From the IMG/VR virus record IMGVR_UViG_3300014913_000015, positions 1 to 59,388 of that record: 59,388 bases of DNA; one strand, given 5' to 3'. A program made the translations under genes and the position numbers. Source of the stretch: a virus (taxonomy: Duplodnaviria > Caudoviricetes). Position 1 is the stretch's first letter. Each line of letters begins with the position of its first letter. The notes under the pieces are model-generated. The model had not been told where the DNA came from. It did no database searches and was given only the letters and a program-made list of their open reading frames with translations. Positions 24,149 to 48,191 of the stretch are shown here, piece by piece.

Positions 24149-27100
24149 ATGGGTAGGAAACTATCATTGTTTGATCTCCTCGATGAAGAGGAGAAGGACA
24201 CTTTGACCACACCTGAAAAGATCGCACCTCTTGCGTCTGAAACCGAAATCTTTTCTCTAATTCCTCGTTGGGAAACCAAGAAAGAACTTTCCCTTCCAAA
24301 ATCTCCTTCCGGAACAATTAGTCTTTTTGATCTCGCGGAAGAAGAACCTAAACCAGAGAAAAAAGAAGAAACTAAAAAACCGTCTGCACCGATCAGTCTC
24401 TTTGATCTTATGGAAAAAGAGATCGAGATTCCTAAAGAGCCTTTCTACAAACGTCTTCTTCGTCCACTTGAAGGCTTTTATAAAGCTATAGAAACTGCTG
24501 CTCCACGCTCCCGCGAAGATATCGAAAAGATTAAAGAAGGTCTGAAAATCGGAGTAAAACAAACTATTTTTCACACTTGGCCAGAATGGCTTACCGGTCT
24601 CCGAAAGATAGCTCCTTTTGCCCACCCTGTTCTTCTTGGCGAAACAATAGCCGCCAAGATAGCTGGAAAAGAAGAACTACTGAGACCTACTGAAAAGGTA
24701 GAGAAAGAACTCGTCCGTAAAATTGAAAAACTTGGGCCTACTGAGGAAGAAATTGAAAAGCTCAAGAAAGATCCGACGATTCGGGCATGGGCAAGGGTTG
24801 GTGGATTTGCTGCTGATATTCCCCGGATAATGGGATTAGGATATGCTTTAGGACCTCTCCTTGGTCCTCTTGCTGAAGGAGCCTCTGGAGCAACAATCTT
24901 CCTTGCTCGTCCTCTTCTTCGTCGTGTGGCTACTAATCCCAAGATGCTCCGTCTGGCGGAGCGTTTCCTGATCAAGCTTCCCCAGAGAATGGTTACCGAT
25001 ACTGCCATCTTTTCTGCTCTTTCTGCTCCTCATCCTGAAGAGATGCTTGAAGCTGCCAAGACAGGCGTCACCTTCGGCCTTCTCGCTGGTCCAGCAGGAA
25101 GAAAACTTCAGCCTATTACTACCGGTCTTGCTGCCTATATATCTGCTAAACGGGAAGGAGCAAGCGATGAGGATGCAGCTTGGGAAGCGCTTATGTTTAC
25201 TGGTTTCAACAAGTTCCTTCCTCACAGTGAATGGACAGAAGAAAATATTCTTAAGATTGGTGGGATCAAATCCAAAAAACAGCGAGCCTATATCAGAGAT
25301 GAGCTCCTGAAAGAACGACTCGGAATAGGAAAAGCCGATCCAGAAGCGAAGAAAGCTGCTGCGAATGCCTATATGCGTTGGCTTGAACACTATAGTCTTC
25401 CTCTTGAAAAGATTGCTGGACGAGCTCTTTCCCCTGAAGAGACTACTAAAGTAGTCGCTTCTCTTGAGAAATTCTTTACGGAAGAAGCGAAGAAGATAAA
25501 ACTTGATCCTCTTGATGAGGTAGTTGGGTTACTTGAAGCAAAGGCCGACCTTAAAGTCGCTCCTGCTTTACGGGAACTTGAACGTCAGGTAACGAGACAG
25601 AAGCCAGAAGATGAAGGTCTTTATTCTACTATTGCTGATCTTCATATCAAATCAGTTCTTTCTGCTGCCAGAGAGTGGAAAGAACAGATTGATCAATTAG
25701 CTCGTAAAACTGAACTTGATAAAAAAGCTGCAAAGCTCCTCCCCAAAGCAACTGCCAAACTAATCGTTGAAAAAATCCATGGTCTCCTTCCTGTCACCCA
25801 AGCAAAAGCCGACATGTCTCTCGCTGAAAGAGCTGACCGCTTAGGTGATCTCGTTAGAATTACTCTTAGAAAGAAAAAAAGCACGGTTGCAAGCGCTCTT
25901 AAAGCATTAGCCGAAAGAGCAAGAGAAGTTCATCCTGATGATAAAAAGAAACTTCTTGATTTGGAGAAGGAATACGAGAATCTTGAGAAAAAAGTCTTTG
26001 AACTTGAACAGAAGCTGATTGCAGAAACACCTGATGAACAAAAACCGGCTGTTGCTCGTCAACTTTATACACAACTTTCCAATTTTATTCGTGGAGAAGA
26101 AATCCAGCCGCTCAGTATACGCAAAATAGAGGAAATACCTGAGCCGATTCCTAAAGAAGAAGTTCCTCCAAAAGGTGTTGAAGAAATTCCTCCCGAACCC
26201 AGAGTTGAAGGAACTCATGAGGGAGTCATACCAACACCTCAGACAATTCTTGTAGAAGCTACCAAACTTATTGATCGGGTTAGCAAAGAAGCTCCTAAGA
26301 AACCAGAAATAGATGTTGATTCTATCCTTTTCAATGTAAAACCTCAAAAAGGTAAACACTTTATCTTTTTAGAGGATACAGGTGAATTTGTTGAAGTCCC
26401 CAAACCTTCCTCTATCAGAGTTCCTACTGAACACTTAAATATTGAACCCGAAGCCCTCGATCTTTTCACCTATTACAGTGGGCGTTTTGAAGGCTGGCCA
26501 ATAATCCTTGGAAAAACAGGAAGAGTTATTGATGTTGTTCCAGACCGTGCAACTGCCTTCCAACGTGCTGCTGAAATTTTTGCCAATCCTGAAAGAGTAG
26601 CGGAAATCCTTGCTCAAGCGGCAACTGATATTCGTAACGGGCAGATTTCTCCTCGCTGGAGACCAGAAGAAATAGAAACAGAACGGAGATTTTCCGATAT
26701 TATTGCAAAGCATATTCGTAATGAGGCGGAGGCAATTAAAGCTAGAATTGAGGAAGATCCTATGGCTGCTTACCTTGGTGCTTATGGAATAGCTGGAGCT
26801 GCTGCGATAGAACCTATTTCTAAAGCAGCCGTAGAAGCTAATAAATTCAGCGGAATTGGAGCTATCGCCCTTGACATTGCAAACTTCAAAGCTGCTATCA
26901 ATGATGTCTTCGGCCATCCGTTTGGAGATAAGATAATTCAGAAGATAGTTGATACTTTACGCTCCTTTGAGAAAGAACATCATGTAAGGTTCTCCCGAAT
27001 TCCTATCCGTGTAGGTGGAGACGAATTCATTGTCTTCCTCTCCGCGAGAAACGCAAAGGAAGTTGAAAACCTCGCCTCAAGTATCAAAAAGAAGGTTACC

Positions 27101-30100
27101 CAGTCCATCCAGCGTATGCTTCGCAATCAAATTCAGAAAGTGGTTAAGAAAACTGGCGAGAAACCGGTAATAGAAGAGCTTGGTGTAGAGGTTAAACCGT
27201 CAATGGTTAAAGCTGATGTCACTTCTCATTTTGTAGAAAAGGGAGTTCTTAAGAGTCCGGCTGATTTCAAAGAAGCAGTTCTTGATACAGTAATGGCGAA
27301 ACTTGACGCTTTGAAACAGGCTCGTACCGATCTTTCTCAGGAGAAGCGAAAGACGAAGATCATGAATGATAAACATGTACTTGCTGATCCTAAACCCATC
27401 CTCTTGGCGCTCCTTTCCAAGAAAGAGCTTGAAACTCCTCCAGTTGATCTTGAGAAAACCCCAGAAGGAAAGATCCGTATCAGCTACCCCGATGGTACTG
27501 TTCGTGAGCTTACTCCCGATGCTTTTATTGATGAACTGTTAGGGGCGAAACCGAAAGATAAGGAAGTCGAGATTCCAAAGCCTGAAGAGCCGGTTTCAAT
27601 CACCACTCCAAAAGATCGAGACAGGGTAAAAGACCTTGATGAGGTTCAGCTAACTGATCCTTCCAATCCTCCTCTTACTGTGGATGATCTGATTGAACCT
27701 GATCCAGCTAAAAATCGAGTGCCAGAGATTGCAATTGGCGCTGGAGGAGGAGGGTTCTTCCGTGACCATATGCCCCTTCTTGCCAGAATAATTGACGCAA
27801 CTAAGGAAACGAAACGCAAATTGAAATGGCTTTACAATCAGTTAGTTGATCCAGTTTCCCGAATGGGTGTGGCTCAGCAGGCAATTATTGAAGCTTGGCG
27901 AACAGCTCCAGAGATAACCGCTTCAGCTATCATCAAACTGGCAAACAAAGCTTTCTATACTTTGAGTACTGAAGAAAGGATTCTTTTCCGCTTAATGTAT
28001 ACGAACAAAGACCTGAGAGATCATCTGATGAGCCTTGAAGATTTTCCTCTTCCTCGCGAAGTTTGGGGGAAAACCAAAGAGCTCCGAAAATTCATTGAAT
28101 TGGCTAAAAATCTTGTTCTTCATGAAGCCCGCAAGAGGGGAATCCGAATTGCTAAATGGCCTGATAGTGCTATTAGTCGTATTTGCCAGAGAATTGCTGA
28201 GATTGACAGAATGTTACGTGAGGGAAGTGTAAGCGAAGACAAGCTTATAGAATTAGAGTTAGAACGGGATACACTTTACGAGACTATGAAGAAGCTTAAA
28301 TCAGAGGTATATTTTCCTCGGTCTTTAATTCCTACCGAAGAAGGTATTCTGGCAGCGGGGCAAATAAGTGCAATGATGTCTAAGGCAGTTAACGATGCGA
28401 TTTACAATGTCTTATCCAACGCTGAAAAACGTCTTGGTCGGCAAAAGTTGAGAGAAGTACTGGAGAACATTACATCAGTAGTTAGTGCCAAAGAATTCTT
28501 GCAAAATCTTGACAAACTTGGTGTACCGAAAGCTGATGTTGGAGTTCAGGATAAGATAATTCTTACTACTTTGATGGCCCTTGATGATATGCCCCTTCCT
28601 CCAATTGACATTTCTCCTGCATTGCGTAAACTGGGAATCCAAATGGGCAGAAGAGGCTATGCAGTGGTTCCTGTTGAATCAGTACGAGAAAAACTCCGGC
28701 TGGACAAAATCATTCCTCAGCACAAACGAAAATTCAACACGGAAGCTGAGGCAATGCTGTGGGCTCTTGAAAATGGGATGGGGTATGTGCTTGATCCTGT
28801 ATACGACCTTGCTAATTATCTACATTACATGGAAGAGCGTTTCCAGTTTCACGATGCTATTGAAGCAATGAAAAAAGCTTCAATTGAAGACCTTCGTCAA
28901 TCAGAAATACTAGCAAAGCAGATGGATTTGAAAACACCTTCTGCTATCCTTGGTTCTAACACAGTCATTCTCCCGTTGTCAGAAGCAGCTCGTCTAAAAG
29001 CTCAGTATGACATTGATCTTCGCGAACTTGGATGGAGAGAATGGGGTGGGCAGCCTCCAATTCCTAATCTAAAAGGACACTTAGTTCACCCACTCATTGA
29101 AGCTTGGTTAAAAGATGAAATGTACGTACCTTGGTTTTCTCGATATGATACTCCAGCTCCACAATGGTTAAAAAAGACAGTGCGATCAATTGACAAACTC
29201 GTTCGAGTTACCAAGATGATGCGCTTCTACATTCCTATGATAATGATTGTTAACGACCTTGGACAGATGTGGATGCTTGGTGCGGCAGGCCCAGCCTCCC
29301 TCGTCAAAGGAGCAGCCATTGATGTTCCTCTCTTGGCCTTTAGAGCTGCAAGGAAAGCAATCACGGGAAGAGGAAGCATCGTTACTGGGCAAAAGTATTA
29401 CGGTTTTCTGGGGTATCTTGCAAAGGCTATGTATGATGTAGCAGCGGAAACTGATTTGTACTTAGCGGCCAAGAAAGCAGGGCTGTTCATTTCTCCTGTA
29501 AGAGATCGGGAAGATGTTGGAAAACTGGCCGTCCATCTCCTTGAGAGGTCAAAACGGCATCCTCTTATAAAGCCATTAGTCGCTCTACGTCAAACTTATC
29601 GAACTACTGCTCCTCATCTTGGTCTCCCAATTGAGCTCCCCTTCAAGGTATTACACATGATTTATAAAGATGGTTTGCAATGGCTCACTTGGAAAGGGGA
29701 TCAAATTGCACGAATGACTGCACTGAATTGGTACCTCGATAGACGAGCAAAGATGGGAACAGATGGAAAACTATGGGTTGAGCATCCTCTTGAGTTCAAA
29801 AAGGCAGTCAATATGGTTCGCAAGTTTATGGTAAATTACCGGGGGATTCCTCAGCGTACACGAAGAACTCTCAATTTTGCCTTCCTGACTCCTACTTATC
29901 GAATCGAAGTTCTGAAACTTTATAAGGATATAGCCAAAGGTCTTGTAACCGACCCAAAAGAATGGATTGGGCCTGCTGCAAGGATCTTCACTGCAAAATC
30001 AATCGCTTTTACTGTTCGCTGGTGGTTAAGAATAGCTTTCTTGCGTATGCTGGCTCCAATAGTGGGAGCTGCTCTCAGTGGATTTGATGAAGACGACCTT

Positions 30101-30820
30101 GAGCGAATTAAAGAGAAATATCGTGACTGGAAACTCAGTGTTGATGTAAGAAAGAATTGGACGCTACAGGATTGGTATCATCTTGTACGTGAACTTCCTG
30201 GTGGTCTTGCTGAAGTTGTGGTTCTCCCCAGTCCTCTTTTTGAAATAGACAAATGGCTAGGACGTGATCCACGATACAGTCTCCGAATGTATAGCTCTGG
30301 TCCTATCCACCTAGCATGGTCACTTTTACTTAATCGTGACTGGAAAGGGGACGAAATAGTACCGCCTGCAGTGGGGCCAATTGAAGCGGCAAGTAGAGTA
30401 ACCGCTTACATTATCAGGCAGGGGTTCATTCCTTGGCTTGAGATGATCTTGCTTTCCGATCGTGATAACTGGAAATGGTGGAACTGGTTGCTTGCATCAA
30501 TGGCAATTGTGCACTACAAGGGTAAGAGCCAGAAATGGCGTTTGATCGCTGCTTACAGACGAGCTGAATGGGAGCTCATGCGCTATAGAGCCAAAGCAAT
30601 GCAGTCAGGCGATCCGAAGGATCTCCAGAGGTATTTAAAGATGAAACAGAGATTGATAAAATTAAAACAGAATACAGTCAAAGCTCTTTTGAGACAGGAG
30701 TCACCACGGTTGATTGACCAATTAATCAACTCATACGGAAAGATCTTTGGAGTGGGTAAGGAGACTTACGAGACATGGCTGTACTGGGATATAAACAACT
30801 TTTTGCGGGGTGAGTATTAA
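24149..30820 (+). CDS. giant internal virion (ejectosome/polyvalent) protein with an embedded GGDEF domain
   Basis: 2223 aa; last and largest of the ejection cluster; contains DIANFKAAINDVFGHPFGD...RVGGDEF (about aa 909-960). Confidence 0.75.
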   Translation: MGRKLSLFDLLDEEEKDTLTTPEKIAPLASETEIFSLIPRWETKKELSLPKSPSGTISLFDLAEEEPKPEKKEETKKPSAPISLFDLMEKEIEIPKEPFYKRLLRPLEGFYKAIETAAPRSREDIEKIKEGLKIGVKQTIFHTWPEWLTGLRKIAPFAHPVLLGETIAAKIAGKEELLRPTEKVEKELVRKIEKLGPTEEEIEKLKKDPTIRAWARVGGFAADIPRIMGLGYALGPLLGPLAEGASGATIFLARPLLRRVATNPKMLRLAERFLIKLPQRMVTDTAIFSALSAPHPEEMLEAAKTGVTFGLLAGPAGRKLQPITTGLAAYISAKREGASDEDAAWEALMFTGFNKFLPHSEWTEENILKIGGIKSKKQRAYIRDELLKERLGIGKADPEAKKAAANAYMRWLEHYSLPLEKIAGRALSPEETTKVVASLEKFFTEEAKKIKLDPLDEVVGLLEAKADLKVAPALRELERQVTRQKPEDEGLYSTIADLHIKSVLSAAREWKEQIDQLARKTELDKKAAKLLPKATAKLIVEKIHGLLPVTQAKADMSLAERADRLGDLVRITLRKKKSTVASALKALAERAREVHPDDKKKLLDLEKEYENLEKKVFELEQKLIAETPDEQKPAVARQLYTQLSNFIRGEEIQPLSIRKIEEIPEPIPKEEVPPKGVEEIPPEPRVEGTHEGVIPTPQTILVEATKLIDRVSKEAPKKPEIDVDSILFNVKPQKGKHFIFLEDTGEFVEVPKPSSIRVPTEHLNIEPEALDLFTYYSGRFEGWPIILGKTGRVIDVVPDRATAFQRAAEIFANPERVAEILAQAATDIRNGQISPRWRPEEIETERRFSDIIAKHIRNEAEAIKARIEEDPMAAYLGAYGIAGAAAIEPISKAAVEANKFSGIGAIALDIANFKAAINDVFGHPFGDKIIQKIVDTLRSFEKEHHVRFSRIPIRVGGDEFIVFLSARNAKEVENLASSIKKKVTQSIQRMLRNQIQKVVKKTGEKPVIEELGVEVKPSMVKADVTSHFVEKGVLKSPADFKEAVLDTVMAKLDALKQARTDLSQEKRKTKIMNDKHVLADPKPILLALLSKKELETPPVDLEKTPEGKIRISYPDGTVRELTPDAFIDELLGAKPKDKEVEIPKPEEPVSITTPKDRDRVKDLDEVQLTDPSNPPLTVDDLIEPDPAKNRVPEIAIGAGGGGFFRDHMPLLARIIDATKETKRKLKWLYNQLVDPVSRMGVAQQAIIEAWRTAPEITASAIIKLANKAFYTLSTEERILFRLMYTNKDLRDHLMSLEDFPLPREVWGKTKELRKFIELAKNLVLHEARKRGIRIAKWPDSAISRICQRIAEIDRMLREGSVSEDKLIELELERDTLYETMKKLKSEVYFPRSLIPTEEGILAAGQISAMMSKAVNDAIYNVLSNAEKRLGRQKLREVLENITSVVSAKEFLQNLDKLGVPKADVGVQDKIILTTLMALDDMPLPPIDISPALRKLGIQMGRRGYAVVPVESVREKLRLDKIIPQHKRKFNTEAEAMLWALENGMGYVLDPVYDLANYLHYMEERFQFHDAIEAMKKASIEDLRQSEILAKQMDLKTPSAILGSNTVILPLSEAARLKAQYDIDLRELGWREWGGQPPIPNLKGHLVHPLIEAWLKDEMYVPWFSRYDTPAPQWLKKTVRSIDKLVRVTKMMRFYIPMIMIVNDLGQMWMLGAAGPASLVKGAAIDVPLLAFRAARKAITGRGSIVTGQKYYGFLGYLAKAMYDVAAETDLYLAAKKAGLFISPVRDREDVGKLAVHLLERSKRHPLIKPLVALRQTYRTTAPHLGLPIELPFKVLHMIYKDGLQWLTWKGDQIARMTALNWYLDRRAKMGTDGKLWVEHPLEFKKAVNMVRKFMVNYRGIPQRTRRTLNFAFLTPTYRIEVLKLYKDIAKGLVTDPKEWIGPAARIFTAKSIAFTVRWWLRIAFLRMLAPIVGAALSGFDEDDLERIKEKYRDWKLSVDVRKNWTLQDWYHLVRELPGGLAEVVVLPSPLFEIDKWLGRDPRYSLRMYSSGPIHLAWSLLLNRDWKGDEIVPPAVGPIEAASRVTAYIIRQGFIPWLEMILLSDRDNWKWWNWLLASMAIVHYKGKSQKWRLIAAYRRAEWELMRYRAKAMQSGDPKDLQRYLKMKQRLIKLKQNTVKALLRQESPRLIDQLINSYGKIFGVGKETYETWLYWDINNFLRGEY

Positions 30821-31602
30821 TGTCATACGTTAAATCACTCGTCGCAGGGTTAATCTTCTTTACCTTCATTATCGCTTGGTGGCCACACTATGAACCAATC
30901 TACCGTTATACCAATGAAATAAGTGATGCCACTGTTGATATCTATCTTGCTTTCAGTGGCCATGCAGGTGGAGCAGAGGATGGATGGCCTATCAGTTCAG
31001 TCACTTATGGGCAAGGAATAGCAATCGCGCCTACCTATGTCTTGACTGCTAAACACGTTGTGACCCCTCCTGATAAAATGTTCCTACTTGGAGTGCCTAT
31101 CCCAATAACTTCTGAGAAGAAGGAAATTTTCGTCTTGTCGCGTATTGCAGATAAACATGGCTATTATCAATGGATCTCAGCTTCCGTAGTATGGACTGCC
31201 GAGAAGGATGATCTAGCTATCATTCATTTGGAAAAACCTGTTGCTCATTACTGGAAAGGAATAAGCGAAATTGACGTATATGACAAAATCTATTTTGTTA
31301 CCAGTTGGGGAACCCATAGAGGATATCTTGCAGATGGAAAAGTTATTGGAAGAGGTTTCTGCCCGTTCAAAGCGGAACGGGACATGGGTGCTTTTCCTAT
31401 TATCAAAGATGACAAAGAATTTTGTAAAGATAACCTTCTGGTTATGGATATGATCGCGATGCCGGGTGAATCAGGATCAGCAGTACTCAATCGTCATGGG
31501 CAGATTGTAGCTATTGTTTCTATCCGTTGGAAATATGTAGTGTGTGTTCCAGTTATAGAATATAAAGAGATTATTGAGAACTATGCAGCTTACACGGAGT
31601 AG
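30820..31602 (+). CDS. trypsin-like (S1) serine protease with N-terminal membrane anchor
   Basis: catalytic triad motifs LTAKHV, DDLA, PGESGS. Confidence 0.8.
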   Translation: MSYVKSLVAGLIFFTFIIAWWPHYEPIYRYTNEISDATVDIYLAFSGHAGGAEDGWPISSVTYGQGIAIAPTYVLTAKHVVTPPDKMFLLGVPIPITSEKKEIFVLSRIADKHGYYQWISASVVWTAEKDDLAIIHLEKPVAHYWKGISEIDVYDKIYFVTSWGTHRGYLADGKVIGRGFCPFKAERDMGAFPIIKDDKEFCKDNLLVMDMIAMPGESGSAVLNRHGQIVAIVSIRWKYVVCVPVIEYKEIIENYAAYTE

Positions 31603-31978
31603 AGTAGACTGGAATCAGATAAGACATTTTCGACAAGATGAATGGGGAAGATGGGAGTTTGTCGATCCCCGTCTTATCTATATGATGGATCAATTACGAG
31701 AAGAGATCGGTGCTCCGATTATCATTCATGAAGCTTATGCTACTTCAGGGCATGCGAAGAACTCATATCATTACATTGGAAAAGCAGTTGATTTCCATAT
31801 CAAGACTAAAAAATCATTCCGTACTCAACTAGCAGTAATTATGAGAATTGGATTCACAGGAATTGGATTTTATCCTTGGTGGGAACATCCTGGATGGCAT
31901 GTTGATATTCGCCCTGCATTTAAAACTCAGCTTTGGGTTTCTCCAGAAAAAGGAGTCTACAAATACCTCATGCCTTAG
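31583..31978 (+). CDS. endolysin, peptidase M15 family
   Basis: SYHYIGKAVDF and WHVDIR zinc-ligand motifs; ATG at 31583. Confidence 0.8.
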   Translation: MQLTRSRVDWNQIRHFRQDEWGRWEFVDPRLIYMMDQLREEIGAPIIIHEAYATSGHAKNSYHYIGKAVDFHIKTKKSFRTQLAVIMRIGFTGIGFYPWWEHPGWHVDIRPAFKTQLWVSPEKGVYKYLMP

Positions 31979-31986
31979 GAGGAAAG

Positions 31987-32085
31987 ATGGGGAGCGTCCT
32001 TAAGTGGAGACGTCGAAAGATGAGGAGAATGAAGTATCGGAAACGAAGAAAGAGAATGCGGTTTAAAACGAAGAGGAATAGATAA
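31987..32085 (+). CDS. ribosomal protein bS22/mS38 (AURKAIP1/COX24, DUF1713)-like peptide (32 aa, not in ORF track)
   Basis: MGSVLKWRRRKMRRMKYRKRRKRMRFKTKRNR with AGGAGG RBS at 31977; resembles the bS22 pattern MGSVIKKRRKRM.K.K.RK. Confidence 0.7.
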   Translation: MGSVLKWRRRKMRRMKYRKRRKRMRFKTKRNR

Positions 32086-32095
32086 ATGATCTTGA

Positions 32096-32272
32096 ATGAC
32101 ACAAAAAATTCCTGAGCAGGAGTTGAAGCGACGGTTGAAATCCTACATTAAGGCGTGGTTATGGAGTGATGTCCTTCGGTATCCAATTGAATTAGATGAA
32201 AGGGATCTTGATAGTTTAGTAAATCTGCTTTTACAAGAGATTAAAGAATACCTTCTTACATCTTTTCCTTAG
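32096..32272 (+). CDS. hypothetical 58-aa protein (not in ORF track)
   Basis: MTQKIPEQELKRRLKSYIKAWLW...; last gene of the + arm. Confidence 0.45.
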   Translation: MTQKIPEQELKRRLKSYIKAWLWSDVLRYPIELDERDLDSLVNLLLQEIKEYLLTSFP

Positions 32273-32432
32273 TAACCTTTTCTTTATCAAACCACCGATC
32301 GACTTCCTCAATAATCCTTCTATTTTCCTCAAACCATCGGTAAATATGACGAAGCATCGTTCGTTCCGTTAGCCAGTTTCCAAGCTTAAAACCAATGCCA
32401 AATGAGAGAAGAATTAATATAGCACAGATCAT
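32256..32432 (-). CDS. small membrane-anchored protein (58 aa, not in ORF track)
   Basis: MICAILILLSFGIGFKLG...; GAGGGG RBS; last gene of the - arm. Confidence 0.5.
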   Translation of the reverse strand: MICAILILLSFGIGFKLGNWLTERTMLRHIYRWFEENRRIIEEVDRWFDKEKVTKEKM

Positions 32433-32436
32433 TATC

Positions 32437-34203
32437 TTATCCCCTCATAACTACAACATTTGAAAACTGACTCTGCAATTCTGGTCTGTGCGACACAACG
32501 AAAACTGTCTCAATTTCTCTTTCCATCTGCTGAAGAATCTCAAACACTTTCTCCTGCCCTTCAACATCTAACGCCCGATCAAACAGCTCATCAAGAAAAA
32601 GAAAATTGGTACTCATTAGATGAAAAGATCTTGCCATACGATTCAGGCCAAACGCCAAAGCACATTCAATCCTGTGTTTTTCTCCACTGGAACAGTCCTC
32701 ATATCGTTTCTTGATTCCAGTACGGTAAACTTTTATTTCAATTTCCTCTTTATTATTCACCTCAATCTCCAAGTCAAGTTTGGAGCTGGAAAGCACGTAA
32801 AGAATCTTTTGTGTTTCTTCTTCCAGCTTCTGAAGAACTTGACGAATGTATTCAAATCTGATTCCTTTCTTTCCGAACATTTCCTTTATGATCTCGTATA
32901 GCTCGATTTTGTGATTCAGCTCATTTTGCTTTTCTATTAACTTGTCAATCTCTTTCCGATTTTTCTTCAAATCTTTGTATCTCTTTTTCAGGAGATTATC
33001 ATAGGTGGAAATATCTTTTTCAATGGAATCAATCTTATTCTGGACAAAAGACAGTTTATCGCGAAGGTTACTCAGTTCGTTTTCATATTGAATGCGAGCC
33101 TTCTCCTGTGAGAGTTTTTCAGTAGCTAGGTATTCGATTCTCTTCTGAAGTTCATTAATCCTATTTTCAATCTCCTCTTTTTCTTCCTCTGCCGTCTTTA
33201 TTTGACGGGAAACAACACTCATTTTCCTCTTATGATCCTGCATTAAACGGTGAACAAGATTCTTACTGATTGGACGCTCACAGACAGGGCAAGGTTTACC
33301 AATATAATCTTTAGCCTCGATCTGTTGGAGATCATGGTATTGCTGGCGGAGAGAATGCAGTTTTCCGTTAATCTGAGTAAGCTTTGAAGACAGTTCGTTT
33401 CTTTCCTCCTTTAACTTTCGTTCTTCTGCTTCGTAATCTACCGCTTTTCCTTTTTGAAATCTTTCAAGCTCTTTCTGAACCTGCTTTATACGATAAATCA
33501 ACCTTCGTTTCTCAAGCACCAATTGATGTTTCTCCTCTTCCGCTTCCTCCTTCTTCTTTGCTTTGTTCCGTTCGAGATAATCAATATCTGCCTTAATTCC
33601 TTCAAGATTTCGTTCTATGACACTTATCTCTTTCTCAAGAGAAGCAAGTTCTACCTGATATTGTTTCAAACGTGAACGGGTATATTCATAGGCCATATCA
33701 AAATGATGAAGATCGAGAATCCCACCAAGGATTGCCAAACGTTGGGCTGGAGTTGCAGCAGCAAAGGTACGGATACGTTCAGGAATGAAAGAGGAAATCA
33801 ACAAAAACTGGTTGAAATCCGCCCTTACAAGCTTTTCGAGTTGAAGTTGAATCTCAGAAGGAGATCCCTTGAAATTTTCTCCATCATAAACTACTACAAG
33901 GTCATTTCCTGCTACAGAGTGCTTTCTGAATCGTGAAACTTTAAGTGGTTTCCCATTGAGATAACCATCAATAATGACCTGACAATCCTTTTTTACAATA
34001 TCATTCACCACATCATCCACACGTGACTGACGAGCAGTACGGTTGAAAAGACACCAAAGGATTGCCTCGTAGATAGAACTCTTCCCACTTCCATTGGGAC
34101 CGCTAATCAAGACAAGACCTCGATTTTGAAAGGAAATCTCGAACTCTCTCAAACAGAAAAAGTTGCGAATCGTCAGCTTGCTGATTTCGAGCATTCTTGC
34201 CAT
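32437..34203 (-). CDS. sbcC: Rad50/SbcC-like ATPase
   Basis: Walker A GPNGSGKS, coiled coil with CPVC zinc hook, SSGE signature, FLDE Walker B. Confidence 0.9.
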   Translation of the reverse strand: MARMLEISKLTIRNFFCLREFEISFQNRGLVLISGPNGSGKSSIYEAILWCLFNRTARQSRVDDVVNDIVKKDCQVIIDGYLNGKPLKVSRFRKHSVAGNDLVVVYDGENFKGSPSEIQLQLEKLVRADFNQFLLISSFIPERIRTFAAATPAQRLAILGGILDLHHFDMAYEYTRSRLKQYQVELASLEKEISVIERNLEGIKADIDYLERNKAKKKEEAEEEKHQLVLEKRRLIYRIKQVQKELERFQKGKAVDYEAEERKLKEERNELSSKLTQINGKLHSLRQQYHDLQQIEAKDYIGKPCPVCERPISKNLVHRLMQDHKRKMSVVSRQIKTAEEEKEEIENRINELQKRIEYLATEKLSQEKARIQYENELSNLRDKLSFVQNKIDSIEKDISTYDNLLKKRYKDLKKNRKEIDKLIEKQNELNHKIELYEIIKEMFGKKGIRFEYIRQVLQKLEEETQKILYVLSSSKLDLEIEVNNKEEIEIKVYRTGIKKRYEDCSSGEKHRIECALAFGLNRMARSFHLMSTNFLFLDELFDRALDVEGQEKVFEILQQMEREIETVFVVSHRPELQSQFSNVVVMRG

Positions 34204-47216: not shown

Positions 47217-48191
47217 CTATGGTTCTCTTATATCAACTCCAACTGTTAAATCTTCTCTCATTCTTCGGATCAATTTTGCTGTATTCAAATAAATAGGGAG
47301 AAAGTGAATAGCCAAATCAAGATCCTTCTTAATTCCTTCGTGCCAGATAGCAATTAATCCCCCTGCATTAACGATAAAATCAGTCAAATAATAGATCTTC
47401 CTTTTGTTTATAATTTCCTTAATCTCATCTTTCTCTTCTTCTTTTATTTGGTTATTTGCGCTTCCCATAATGACAGTACCTTCCTTCAGCTTCTCAAGAG
47501 TCTCCTTATTAACTATACCCCCAAGAGCACAAGGAGAAAAGAGGTCAGCACCTGCAGTATAGATATCCTCTGGAGGAAGGATAATAGTAACTTTTTGTCG
47601 CTGTTCCTCTTTAAGCGAGCTGAGGAATCGTTCAACTGCTGAATGGTCAATATCACAAACAAATAGTCGTTCAATAGGGAAGTGTTCAAGCAATAATCTT
47701 GCAAACGGCTCTCCACATTTCCCCAAACCCTGAACAGCAACACTCTTGACTTTGAAATAATACTGTACCGCTAAGTAGGCCCAGCATAATCCAACTGCAG
47801 TCCAGTGCCCCGTATTGGAGTTAACTACGTAAGGAGATTGCTTAGCCATAAAAGCTACTTCTTCAGGAGCAAGCCCCACATCCTGCCCGGTATAAAATCG
47901 TCCTTCAAACTCGTTCACATATTCACATACTCGTGTGAGAACTTCCTTTCGATCTTTTGCTGGATCAGCATAAATCACGCCTTTTGCTCCCTCTGCTGGA
48001 ATCATTGCCCATTTACATTTATAATGCATCGCCTCCGCAAGCCGATGTGCGTCTTCTTTTGCCTCTTCCAAGCTATCATATTTCTTCCATCGAGTACCAC
48101 CAAGAAAAGTCATAGCCGGTTGATCATAGAAAGCTATGACATATTGCCCATAATTTCCTAAAGGTTTCGTAACTATCTCTATCTTTCTCAT
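47217..48191 (-). CDS. Glu/Leu/Phe/Val dehydrogenase (leucine dehydrogenase-like)
   Basis: LGGTRW, MHYK, GAKGVI, TGQDVG, VQGLGKCG, FSPCALGG, GSANNQ, DFIVNAGG. Confidence 0.85.
   Translation of the reverse strand: MRKIEIVTKPLGNYGQYVIAFYDQPAMTFLGGTRWKKYDSLEEAKEDAHRLAEAMHYKCKWAMIPAEGAKGVIYADPAKDRKEVLTRVCEYVNEFEGRFYTGQDVGLAPEEVAFMAKQSPYVVNSNTGHWTAVGLCWAYLAVQYYFKVKSVAVQGLGKCGEPFARLLLEHFPIERLFVCDIDHSAVERFLSSLKEEQRQKVTIILPPEDIYTAGADLFSPCALGGIVNKETLEKLKEGTVIMGSANNQIKEEEKDEIKEIINKRKIYYLTDFIVNAGGLIAIWHEGIKKDLDLAIHFLPIYLNTAKLIRRMREDLTVGVDIREP

Follow-up and report, generated by a model that had tools for sequence, protein, structure and literature searches.

A homologue of ribosomal protein bS22 encoded directly behind the endolysin gene of a phage genome

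The virus record analyzed in this study, a linear IMG/VR sequence of 59,388 bp with a CheckV completeness of 69% (hereafter, the window), carries a small gene at 31987..32085 on the + strand, and its 32-residue product is supported by sequence comparison as a phage-encoded homologue of the ribosomal protein bS22 (COX24_C family). The ORF is a genuine protein-coding gene, and it is under purifying selection in the phage lineage. We consider it probable, though well short of certain, that the phage has a bS22 copy derived from a Desulfobacterota-like lineage and that this copy, by homology with known bS22 proteins, may supplement or replace host bS22 in ribosomes.

Among bacterial ribosomal proteins, bS22, the counterpart of mitochondrial mS38, is the smallest, and gene callers often miss it. 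The protein is located at the subunit interface, beside the decoding center and the aminoglycoside site. Described virus-encoded ribosomal proteins are mainly exchangeable ones, such as bS21 and bL12. bS22 has been identified in the ribosomes of mycobacteria and of Flavobacterium johnsoniae, where it inserts between h44 and h45 and contacts H70 (PMC7797042), and Borrelia bS22 lies in a pocket made up of h2, h27, h44, and h45 and contacts H68 (PMC10618245). The latter study treats bS22 as analogous to mS38 and eukaryotic eL41, places mS38 in the same rRNA pocket, and predicts that bS22 is present elsewhere, since short genes escape annotation. According to a third report, Lys16 bridges to the h44 backbone, and deletion of bS22 in M. 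smegmatis caused no growth or global translation defect and made aminoglycoside sensitivity two-fold higher (PMC10081302).

The sequence of the locus, as read directly, is TAGGAGGAAAGATG. An AGGAGG Shine–Dalgarno (SD) sequence (31977..31982, + strand) shares two bases with the end of the TAG stop codon that closes the endolysin gene (31976–31978) and is followed, after a 4-nt spacer, by the ATG at 31987; the 32 codons are closed by a TAA stop codon. The earlier note on this DNA, made from its letters alone, had reported this ribosome-binding site and a 32-aa ORF right after the endolysin, and its coordinates and translation were exact. SD sequences of at least 6 nt precede 31 of the 61 likely genes of the phage, compared with 2% of random positions. 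The peptide starts with MGSV, and the ORF stands alone with a length within the approximately 29–33 aa expected of bS22. Lys or Arg occupies 19 of the 32 residues (59%), and neither a signal peptide nor a hydrophobic segment was found in the peptide sequence. The description of the ORF as unannotated held in one respect, as its exact sequence was absent from about 15 billion predicted proteins, but not in another, as an identical sequence is present in the ESM Atlas.

The Pfam model COX24_C (PF08213) matched the peptide with 25.5 bits (E 1.2e-5; cut-off, 23), covering model positions 1–30 of 33. In a six-frame genome search with the same model, the window ORF scored 23.2 bits against the cut-off of 23, and only one of 14 control genomes, that of the actinobacterium Corynebacterium glutamicum, had a score over the cut-off. 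The NCBIfam model ribo_bS22 (NF047430) gave 17.0 bits, or 12.6 bits in the six-frame search, which is below its equivalog cut-off of 34; in a calibration of this model, four of seven cellular relatives tested also failed (25.8–31.2 bits) and three passed. The corresponding ORF of a related contig, L086, described below, scored 30.5 bits with PF08213 and 24.9 bits with NF047430, the latter again below 34.

A family HMM was built from 22 unique sequences representing 30 cellular loci, which had been picked by PF08213 and not by the query. The peptide scored 32.9 bits against this HMM, whereas none of 5000 composition-matched shuffles reached that score (mean, -7.3; sd, 2.9; maximum, 11.4). When residues 13–32 alone were shuffled, 2 of 3000 sequences reached the real score, and when residues 2–12 alone were shuffled, 0 of 3000 did; since the half-shuffled sequences nearly never reached the score, both halves of the peptide carry signal. 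The four other small ORFs of the window with at least 35% Lys plus Arg scored 1.5 bits or less. A shuffled Arg/Lys-rich control of this kind had been suggested in the earlier note, and it indicates that the residue order, beyond composition, matches the family.

Comparison with solved structures pointed in the same direction. A phmmer search of PDB sequences returned 12 matches at E<=10, comprising nine bS22, mS38, or AURKAIP1 chains and three eL27 tails; the matches to the former group were mostly colinear from residue 1, and the best was 8crx_X (E 0.077). In the ESM Atlas, COX24_C accounted for 22 of the 30 nearest clusters, with a top score of 0.96. A profile of a 28-sequence alignment, in which the window peptide was included, matched solved bS22 chains with E values from 3.8e-12 to 7.9e-10 and mS38 chains from 3.8e-5 (about 4e-5), and 17 of its 18 matches at E<=1 were bS22, mS38, or COX24. 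These matches to solved bS22 chains indicate that the family is the structurally validated bS22 family, with the window peptide inside it. The PDB alignments also showed that the motif MGSVIKKRRKRM, which had been given in the earlier note as the beginning of this family, is the start of solved bS22 chains.

In the 28-sequence alignment, M1, G2, S3, K6, and R25 do not vary. Lys16 is present in both the window and L086 copies, and both also keep the MGSV start, an aromatic residue at position 26, and the residue order in both halves. Of the members seen, the window copy diverges most, with Met15 at a position that is His or Lys in almost every other member, and the C-terminal tail is longer in both phage copies. 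AlphaFold2, run with the 28-sequence alignment, predicted a single helix spanning residues 4–31 with a mean pLDDT of 88.5; the model represents the free peptide, in which a ribosome-bound bend is not judgeable.

Searches with the single sequence were less productive. PHROGs contained no family for the peptide, and phmmer against 1.8 billion proteins gave no match at E<=1e-3, as expected for 32 biased residues. A 50-aa, TTG-started extension of the same frame, used as a protein query, yielded no candidate sharing three words. tblastn against 50,697 GenBank phage records gave no match, a result that says nothing on cultured phages because the low-complexity filter probably masks the query.

Cellular relatives were sought with a degenerate DNA pattern of the Trp7-containing N-terminus, which identified 13 loci in GTDB species genomes: 10 in Chloroflexota/Dehalococcoidia MAGs, two in 'Deltaproteobacteria'/Desulfobacterales MAGs, and one in another MAG. 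At each locus, a GGAGG-like SD precedes a 29–33-aa ORF of this type in ordinary chromosomal surroundings, and the two nearest loci are syntenic. The nearest relatives of the window peptide are single-copy 29–30-aa genes of Desulfobacterota MAGs, with which it shares 79% identity in the case of G003 and G078 (29 aa) and 73% identity in the case of G001 and G002. In the phylum of G003, 49 of 151 genomes had a single copy scoring over the PF08213 cut-off; in its order, the window peptide had matches in 54 of 61 genomes, and the cellular gene is nearly invariant within this order across loci of 30–62% GC. Relatives from Desulfobacterota, Thermodesulfobacteriota, Desulfatiglans, and Chloroflexota are named 'AURKAIP1/COX24 domain-containing protein' or 'aurora kinase A-interacting protein' at NCBI. 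With respect to the closest cellular genes, dN was 0.12–0.16, synonymous sites were saturated, and the flanks were unrelated. The saturation and the unrelated flanks rule out a fresh scrap of host DNA as the origin of the phage gene. The most likely capture source is a Desulfobacterota-like host lineage.

Two features of the cellular genes were observed in addition. The Trp7 variant (MGSVLKW...; loci L015-L027, L028-L035, and L094-L098) was seen only in Chloroflexota/Dehalococcoidia MAGs and in a low-GC Desulfobacterota-like subset (locus GC, 30–44%; genomes mostly small), and it is common to two distant phyla. Furthermore, a Leu codon seems to serve as the start of many bS22-like genes of the G003 phylum (LGSV...), and no Met lies immediately before it (L063, L068, L075, L076, L079-L081, L083, and L039-L042). 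This Leu start, together with the short length, helps to explain why cellular bS22-like genes frequently go unannotated.

As for the host of the phage, there are hints only: the peptide resembles Desulfobacterota genes, SD sequences are used heavily (31 of 61 genes), and the DNA occurs in metagenomes from sediment. Searching 20 kb of DNA against the five nearest genomes yielded short matches alone; the best, of 24 nt in a multi-match region, was taken as chance, and the portal protein was not found in these five genomes. The peptide nevertheless provides a hint for an otherwise orphan phage, namely that its hosts may be Desulfobacterota-like sediment bacteria.

Conservation of the gene was examined in L086, a 3.6-kb contig with 86.5% nucleotide identity to window positions 29114–32249, which was obtained by a metagenome scan with the endolysin. 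L086 has a 32-aa ORF in the same place, in which a GAGGAG SD, the start, the stop, and the length are kept. Between the two ORFs, 25 of 32 residues are identical and seven differ, and 22 of 32 codons differ, 15 synonymously and seven non-synonymously; identity in the two remaining frames is 35% and 29%. The 30 nucleotide differences are distributed 5/5/20 over the first, second, and third codon positions, and in neutral simulations with 30 random changes, 0 of 20000 sequences kept at least 25 residues without a stop (mean kept, 13.7). A dN/dS ratio was not computable for the ORF, because dS was saturated. Conservation in a related phage, which the earlier note had regarded as informative, is found in L086, where the 32-aa ORF is kept under purifying selection. 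Contigs of four runs aligned to the region showed no insertions or deletions, and one contig from a second sediment study spans 31847–32233 with 12 substitutions.

These results bear on whether the ORF is a gene at all. A chance Arg/Lys-rich ORF would be short and of biased composition, as this one is, and would leave the phmmer search of 1.8 billion proteins empty at E<=1e-3. It would not be expected to exceed the PF08213 cut-off, outscore its shuffles, share 79% identity with cellular genes, have profile matches among solved chains, and retain its residues beyond neutral simulations. The shuffle and neutral-mutation controls (0/5000 and 0/20000) refute this explanation, and the probability that we leave to it is negligible. 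The identity put forward in the earlier note, bS22/mS38 (COX24_C, DUF1713), was borne out by the PF08213 match, the shuffles, the 73–79% cellular identity, the profile matches to solved chains, and the purifying selection in L086.

The gene nevertheless changes rapidly. Local identity between the two phages shows a trough at the ORF (0.69, compared with a mean of 0.86 and an sd of 0.08). The dN between the window and L086 was 0.19 for the bS22-like ORF, 0.022 for the endolysin (dS 0.65; amino acid identity, 95.5%), and 0.045 for the protease (dS 0.88). The phage bS22 copies hence evolve faster than their neighbors, whereas the cellular genes are nearly invariant within one order. This fast change could reflect relaxed constraint, a changed role, adaptation to host ribosomes, or small-cassette exchange. 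The strongest drop in identity between the window and L086 was observed elsewhere, at 29497–29637 (0.59–0.66), in the C-terminal part of a 2223-aa protein, where an indel region is present too. A captured host gene that drifts as a functionless passenger would also evolve faster than its neighbors and could have a low NCBIfam score. However, drift fits poorly with the 5/5/20 third-position bias, with the retention of 25 of 32 residues over 30 nucleotide changes (0/20000 in neutral simulations), and with the SD, start, stop, and length kept in L086, and the saturation of synonymous sites relative to all cellular relatives also argues against it; we regard this explanation as very unlikely.

The gene neighborhood is that of a phage. 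The + strand gene block runs to about 32.3 kb, and PHROGs assigned a portal protein, a virion structural protein, and a tail-fiber-like protein to it. Upstream of the bS22-like gene, the block contains a 2223-aa putative internal virion protein (24149..30820, +) in the virion/ejection part of the genome; a trypsin-like serine peptidase located 5' of the endolysin (30820..31602, +; Pfam Trypsin_2, 30.8 bits; Trypsin, 29.6 bits; PHROG 9683, protease); and an M15-family peptidoglycan peptidase, the endolysin (31574..31978, +; Pfam Peptidase_M15_2, 33.8 bits; M15_3, 26.6 bits; PHROG 894, endolysin, 4.5e-13). The last gene of the block is a 58-aa ORF (32096..32272, +), for which no Pfam, NCBIfam, or PHROG family was matched; it lies directly 3' of the bS22-like gene, and its counterpart in L086 (L086:2987-3172) has 61 aa. 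From 32437 on, - strand genes converge, including SbcC-like, SbcD-like, RecA-like, ribonucleotide reductase, and family-A DNA polymerase genes. The bS22-like gene is inside a bona fide viral genome, between the endolysin gene and a phage ORF conserved in L086, and it lies where the structural and lysis block ends, away from the early genes. The Rfam scan of 31000–33000 gave no hit above threshold, neither an intrinsic terminator-like site nor a convincing promoter was found around the ORF, and no tRNA genes were found in the window. The sequencing runs containing the region included no RNA run.

Two other proteins of the window attracted attention. The 2223-aa protein has a GGDEF (diguanylate cyclase) domain at residues 901–997 (Pfam, 51.2 bits), and the translation shows the GGDEF motif itself; it is unusual for a giant putative internal virion protein to include a cyclic-di-GMP synthase domain. 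Among the replication genes, a 324-aa protein (47217-48191, -) has Glu/Leu/Phe/Val dehydrogenase domains (Pfam, 47.3 and 37.3 bits) and may be the product of an auxiliary metabolic gene.

When endolysin-related loci were scanned with the family HMM, the ORF was detected in only one of 14, namely L086, and more distant endolysin relatives have other genes 3' of the endolysin. No close phage relative was found in IMG/VR, where the C-terminal part of the 2223-aa protein retrieved the window alone and the protease retrieved none, and neither IMG/VR nor the metagenome scan provided close relatives beyond L086. blastn of window positions 30000–34000 against GenBank phages gave no DNA match.

Two pattern scans of IMG/VR revealed seven further viral records with bS22-like ORFs, so that at least eight records, including the window, are counted as a lower bound. 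Six of the seven form a marine-type group (L010:3554-3646, L011, L012, L014, L013, and L084), in which the 31-aa gene lies between a SAM-decarboxylase-like (or neighboring) gene and a thioredoxin gene, with Hsp20 and similar auxiliary genes around. The marine-type peptide scored 51.7 bits with NF047430, over the equivalog cut-off of 34, and its acquisition is independent of that of the window. The viral nature of this group rests on the IMG/VR classification, CheckV (93% for G211), and PHROG auxiliary-gene matches; the hallmark models Gp23, Terminase_6N, and Terminase_6C were unmatched in it. A third lineage is represented by a 115,399-bp record, which is 99% complete according to CheckV, has a weak, sub-threshold Terminase_6C match, and carries a 31-aa bS22-like ORF (L085:692-747, -) in a 1.2-kb locus of 22% GC. 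When the hallmark models were applied to five of the records other than the window, Gp23 and Terminase_6N matched none of the five, and Terminase_6C gave one sub-threshold match, in G214. At least two IMG/VR virus lineages besides that of the window carry bS22-like genes.

The location of the gene in the window raises the question of whether its product acts in lysis. The overlap of its SD with the endolysin stop codon suggests co-expression, the peptide is predicted to form a single helix (residues 4–31), and a review on ribosomal proteins as antimicrobials exists (PMC9409020). A cationic lysis helper, or another endolysin-coupled moonlighting function such as outer-membrane permeabilization or RNA chaperoning, might thus be exerted through a basic amphipathic helix. 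However, the peptide has no signal peptide or hydrophobic segment, other viral lineages carry the gene among metabolic auxiliary genes (SAM decarboxylase-like, thioredoxin) and not beside a lysin, and 13 of the 14 endolysin-related loci are without the ORF. We therefore consider such a function decidedly unlikely.

A location where the structural and lysis genes end, following the 2223-aa putative internal virion protein, the protease, and the endolysin, is also what would be expected of a late-made peptide that is packaged with DNA or neutralizes it. A bS22-derived peptide repurposed in this way, as a nucleic-acid-condensing or virion-internal component, would agree with the Lys plus Arg content of 59%, the faster evolution relative to the neighbors, and the loss of the conserved His15. 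On the other hand, both phage copies keep family-specific features unrelated to charge (MGSV, Lys16, the aromatic residue at position 26, and the residue order), which a mere polycation would not need; such repurposing seems rather unlikely to us.

We favor the explanation that the phage carries a ribosomal bS22 copy; the earlier note had proposed, as an inference, either a late-expressed modifier or replacement in the ribosome or a repurposed DNA-condensing peptide. In this explanation, a bS22 gene would have been captured from a Desulfobacterota-like host lineage, and it would now share a transcript with the structural and lysis genes, with a strong SD of its own for translation. Late-gene expression is inferred from the position and the overlapping SD and stop codon. 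By homology, the basic helix of about 30 residues would insert into the 16S rRNA pocket of h2, h27, h44, and h45, at the interface beside the decoding center, and the phage peptide would supplement or replace host bS22 in free or newly made ribosomes during infection. Incorporation into ribosomes and any effect on translation are presumed. Since deletion in M. smegmatis was without a growth or global translation defect (PMC10081302), the benefit to the phage is not obvious. A more far-reaching possibility, which we consider unlikely, is that the fast-evolving bS22 of the phage displaces the near-invariant bS22 of the host in the h44/h45 pocket beside the decoding center and thereby gives rise to phage-specialized ribosomes, or to ribosomes shielded from host factors or small molecules acting at h44, during the late synthesis burst. 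If this were true, the h44/h45 pocket would be marked as a recurrent viral target by the independent presence of bS22 genes in three or more unrelated virus lineages.

Ribosomal proteins encoded by viruses are a known kind, and Mizuno et al. 2019 (PMC6375957) reported 14 of them. 'S22' and 'COX24' are absent from the main text of that paper. A preprint on phage PhiMa05 lists bS1, bL21, bL27, bL33, uL11, and uL1. In the titles and abstracts on bS22, COX24, and DUF1713 that were searched, no phage bS22 was described. The statement of the earlier note that it knew of no described phage bS22 accords with this literature, including the Mizuno et al. 2019 main text, and a phage bS22 appears to be without description in the papers searched. 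The copy in the window and those in at least two other lineages extend the known repertoire of phages by one protein and by one site on the ribosome. They also show that phage ORFs of about 30 codons deserve family searches, and they offer a set of natural bS22 variants with which the function of this poorly understood protein can be explored.

Compared with bacterial bS22 proteins solved in ribosomes, such as those of Mycolicibacterium smegmatis, Cutibacterium acnes, and others, the phage peptide is likewise the product of a stand-alone basic ORF of about 30 aa with MGSV and Lys16, and it is colinear with them from residue 1. It differs from these solved proteins in being phage-encoded and in having Trp7, Arg13-Arg14-Met15, a longer KTKRNR tail, and an NF047430 score below the cut-off. 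The Desulfobacterota/Thermodesulfobacteriota MAG genes (G003, G078, and G001) share with it Trp7, the KYRK and RKRMR stretches, and the kind of SD. However, these genes are 29–30 aa long and near-invariant, whereas the phage copies are 32 aa long and seven residues apart, and the flanks show no DNA similarity. mS38 chains align with residues 3–30 of the phage peptide, and one of them, 9ojm_3, shares VLK-RRRKM and KYRK; mS38 (AURKAIP1/Cox24) is, however, the C-terminal domain of longer proteins (69–200-aa chains), and the peptide on its own matches them weakly (E 0.46-8.5). The virus-encoded proteins bS21, bL12, bL9, bL31, bL33, and others (PMC6375957) resemble the phage bS22 in being small, of cellular origin, under purifying selection, and present in several virus lineages. 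Unlike those proteins, bS22 sits in an rRNA pocket at the subunit interface and not on the solvent side.
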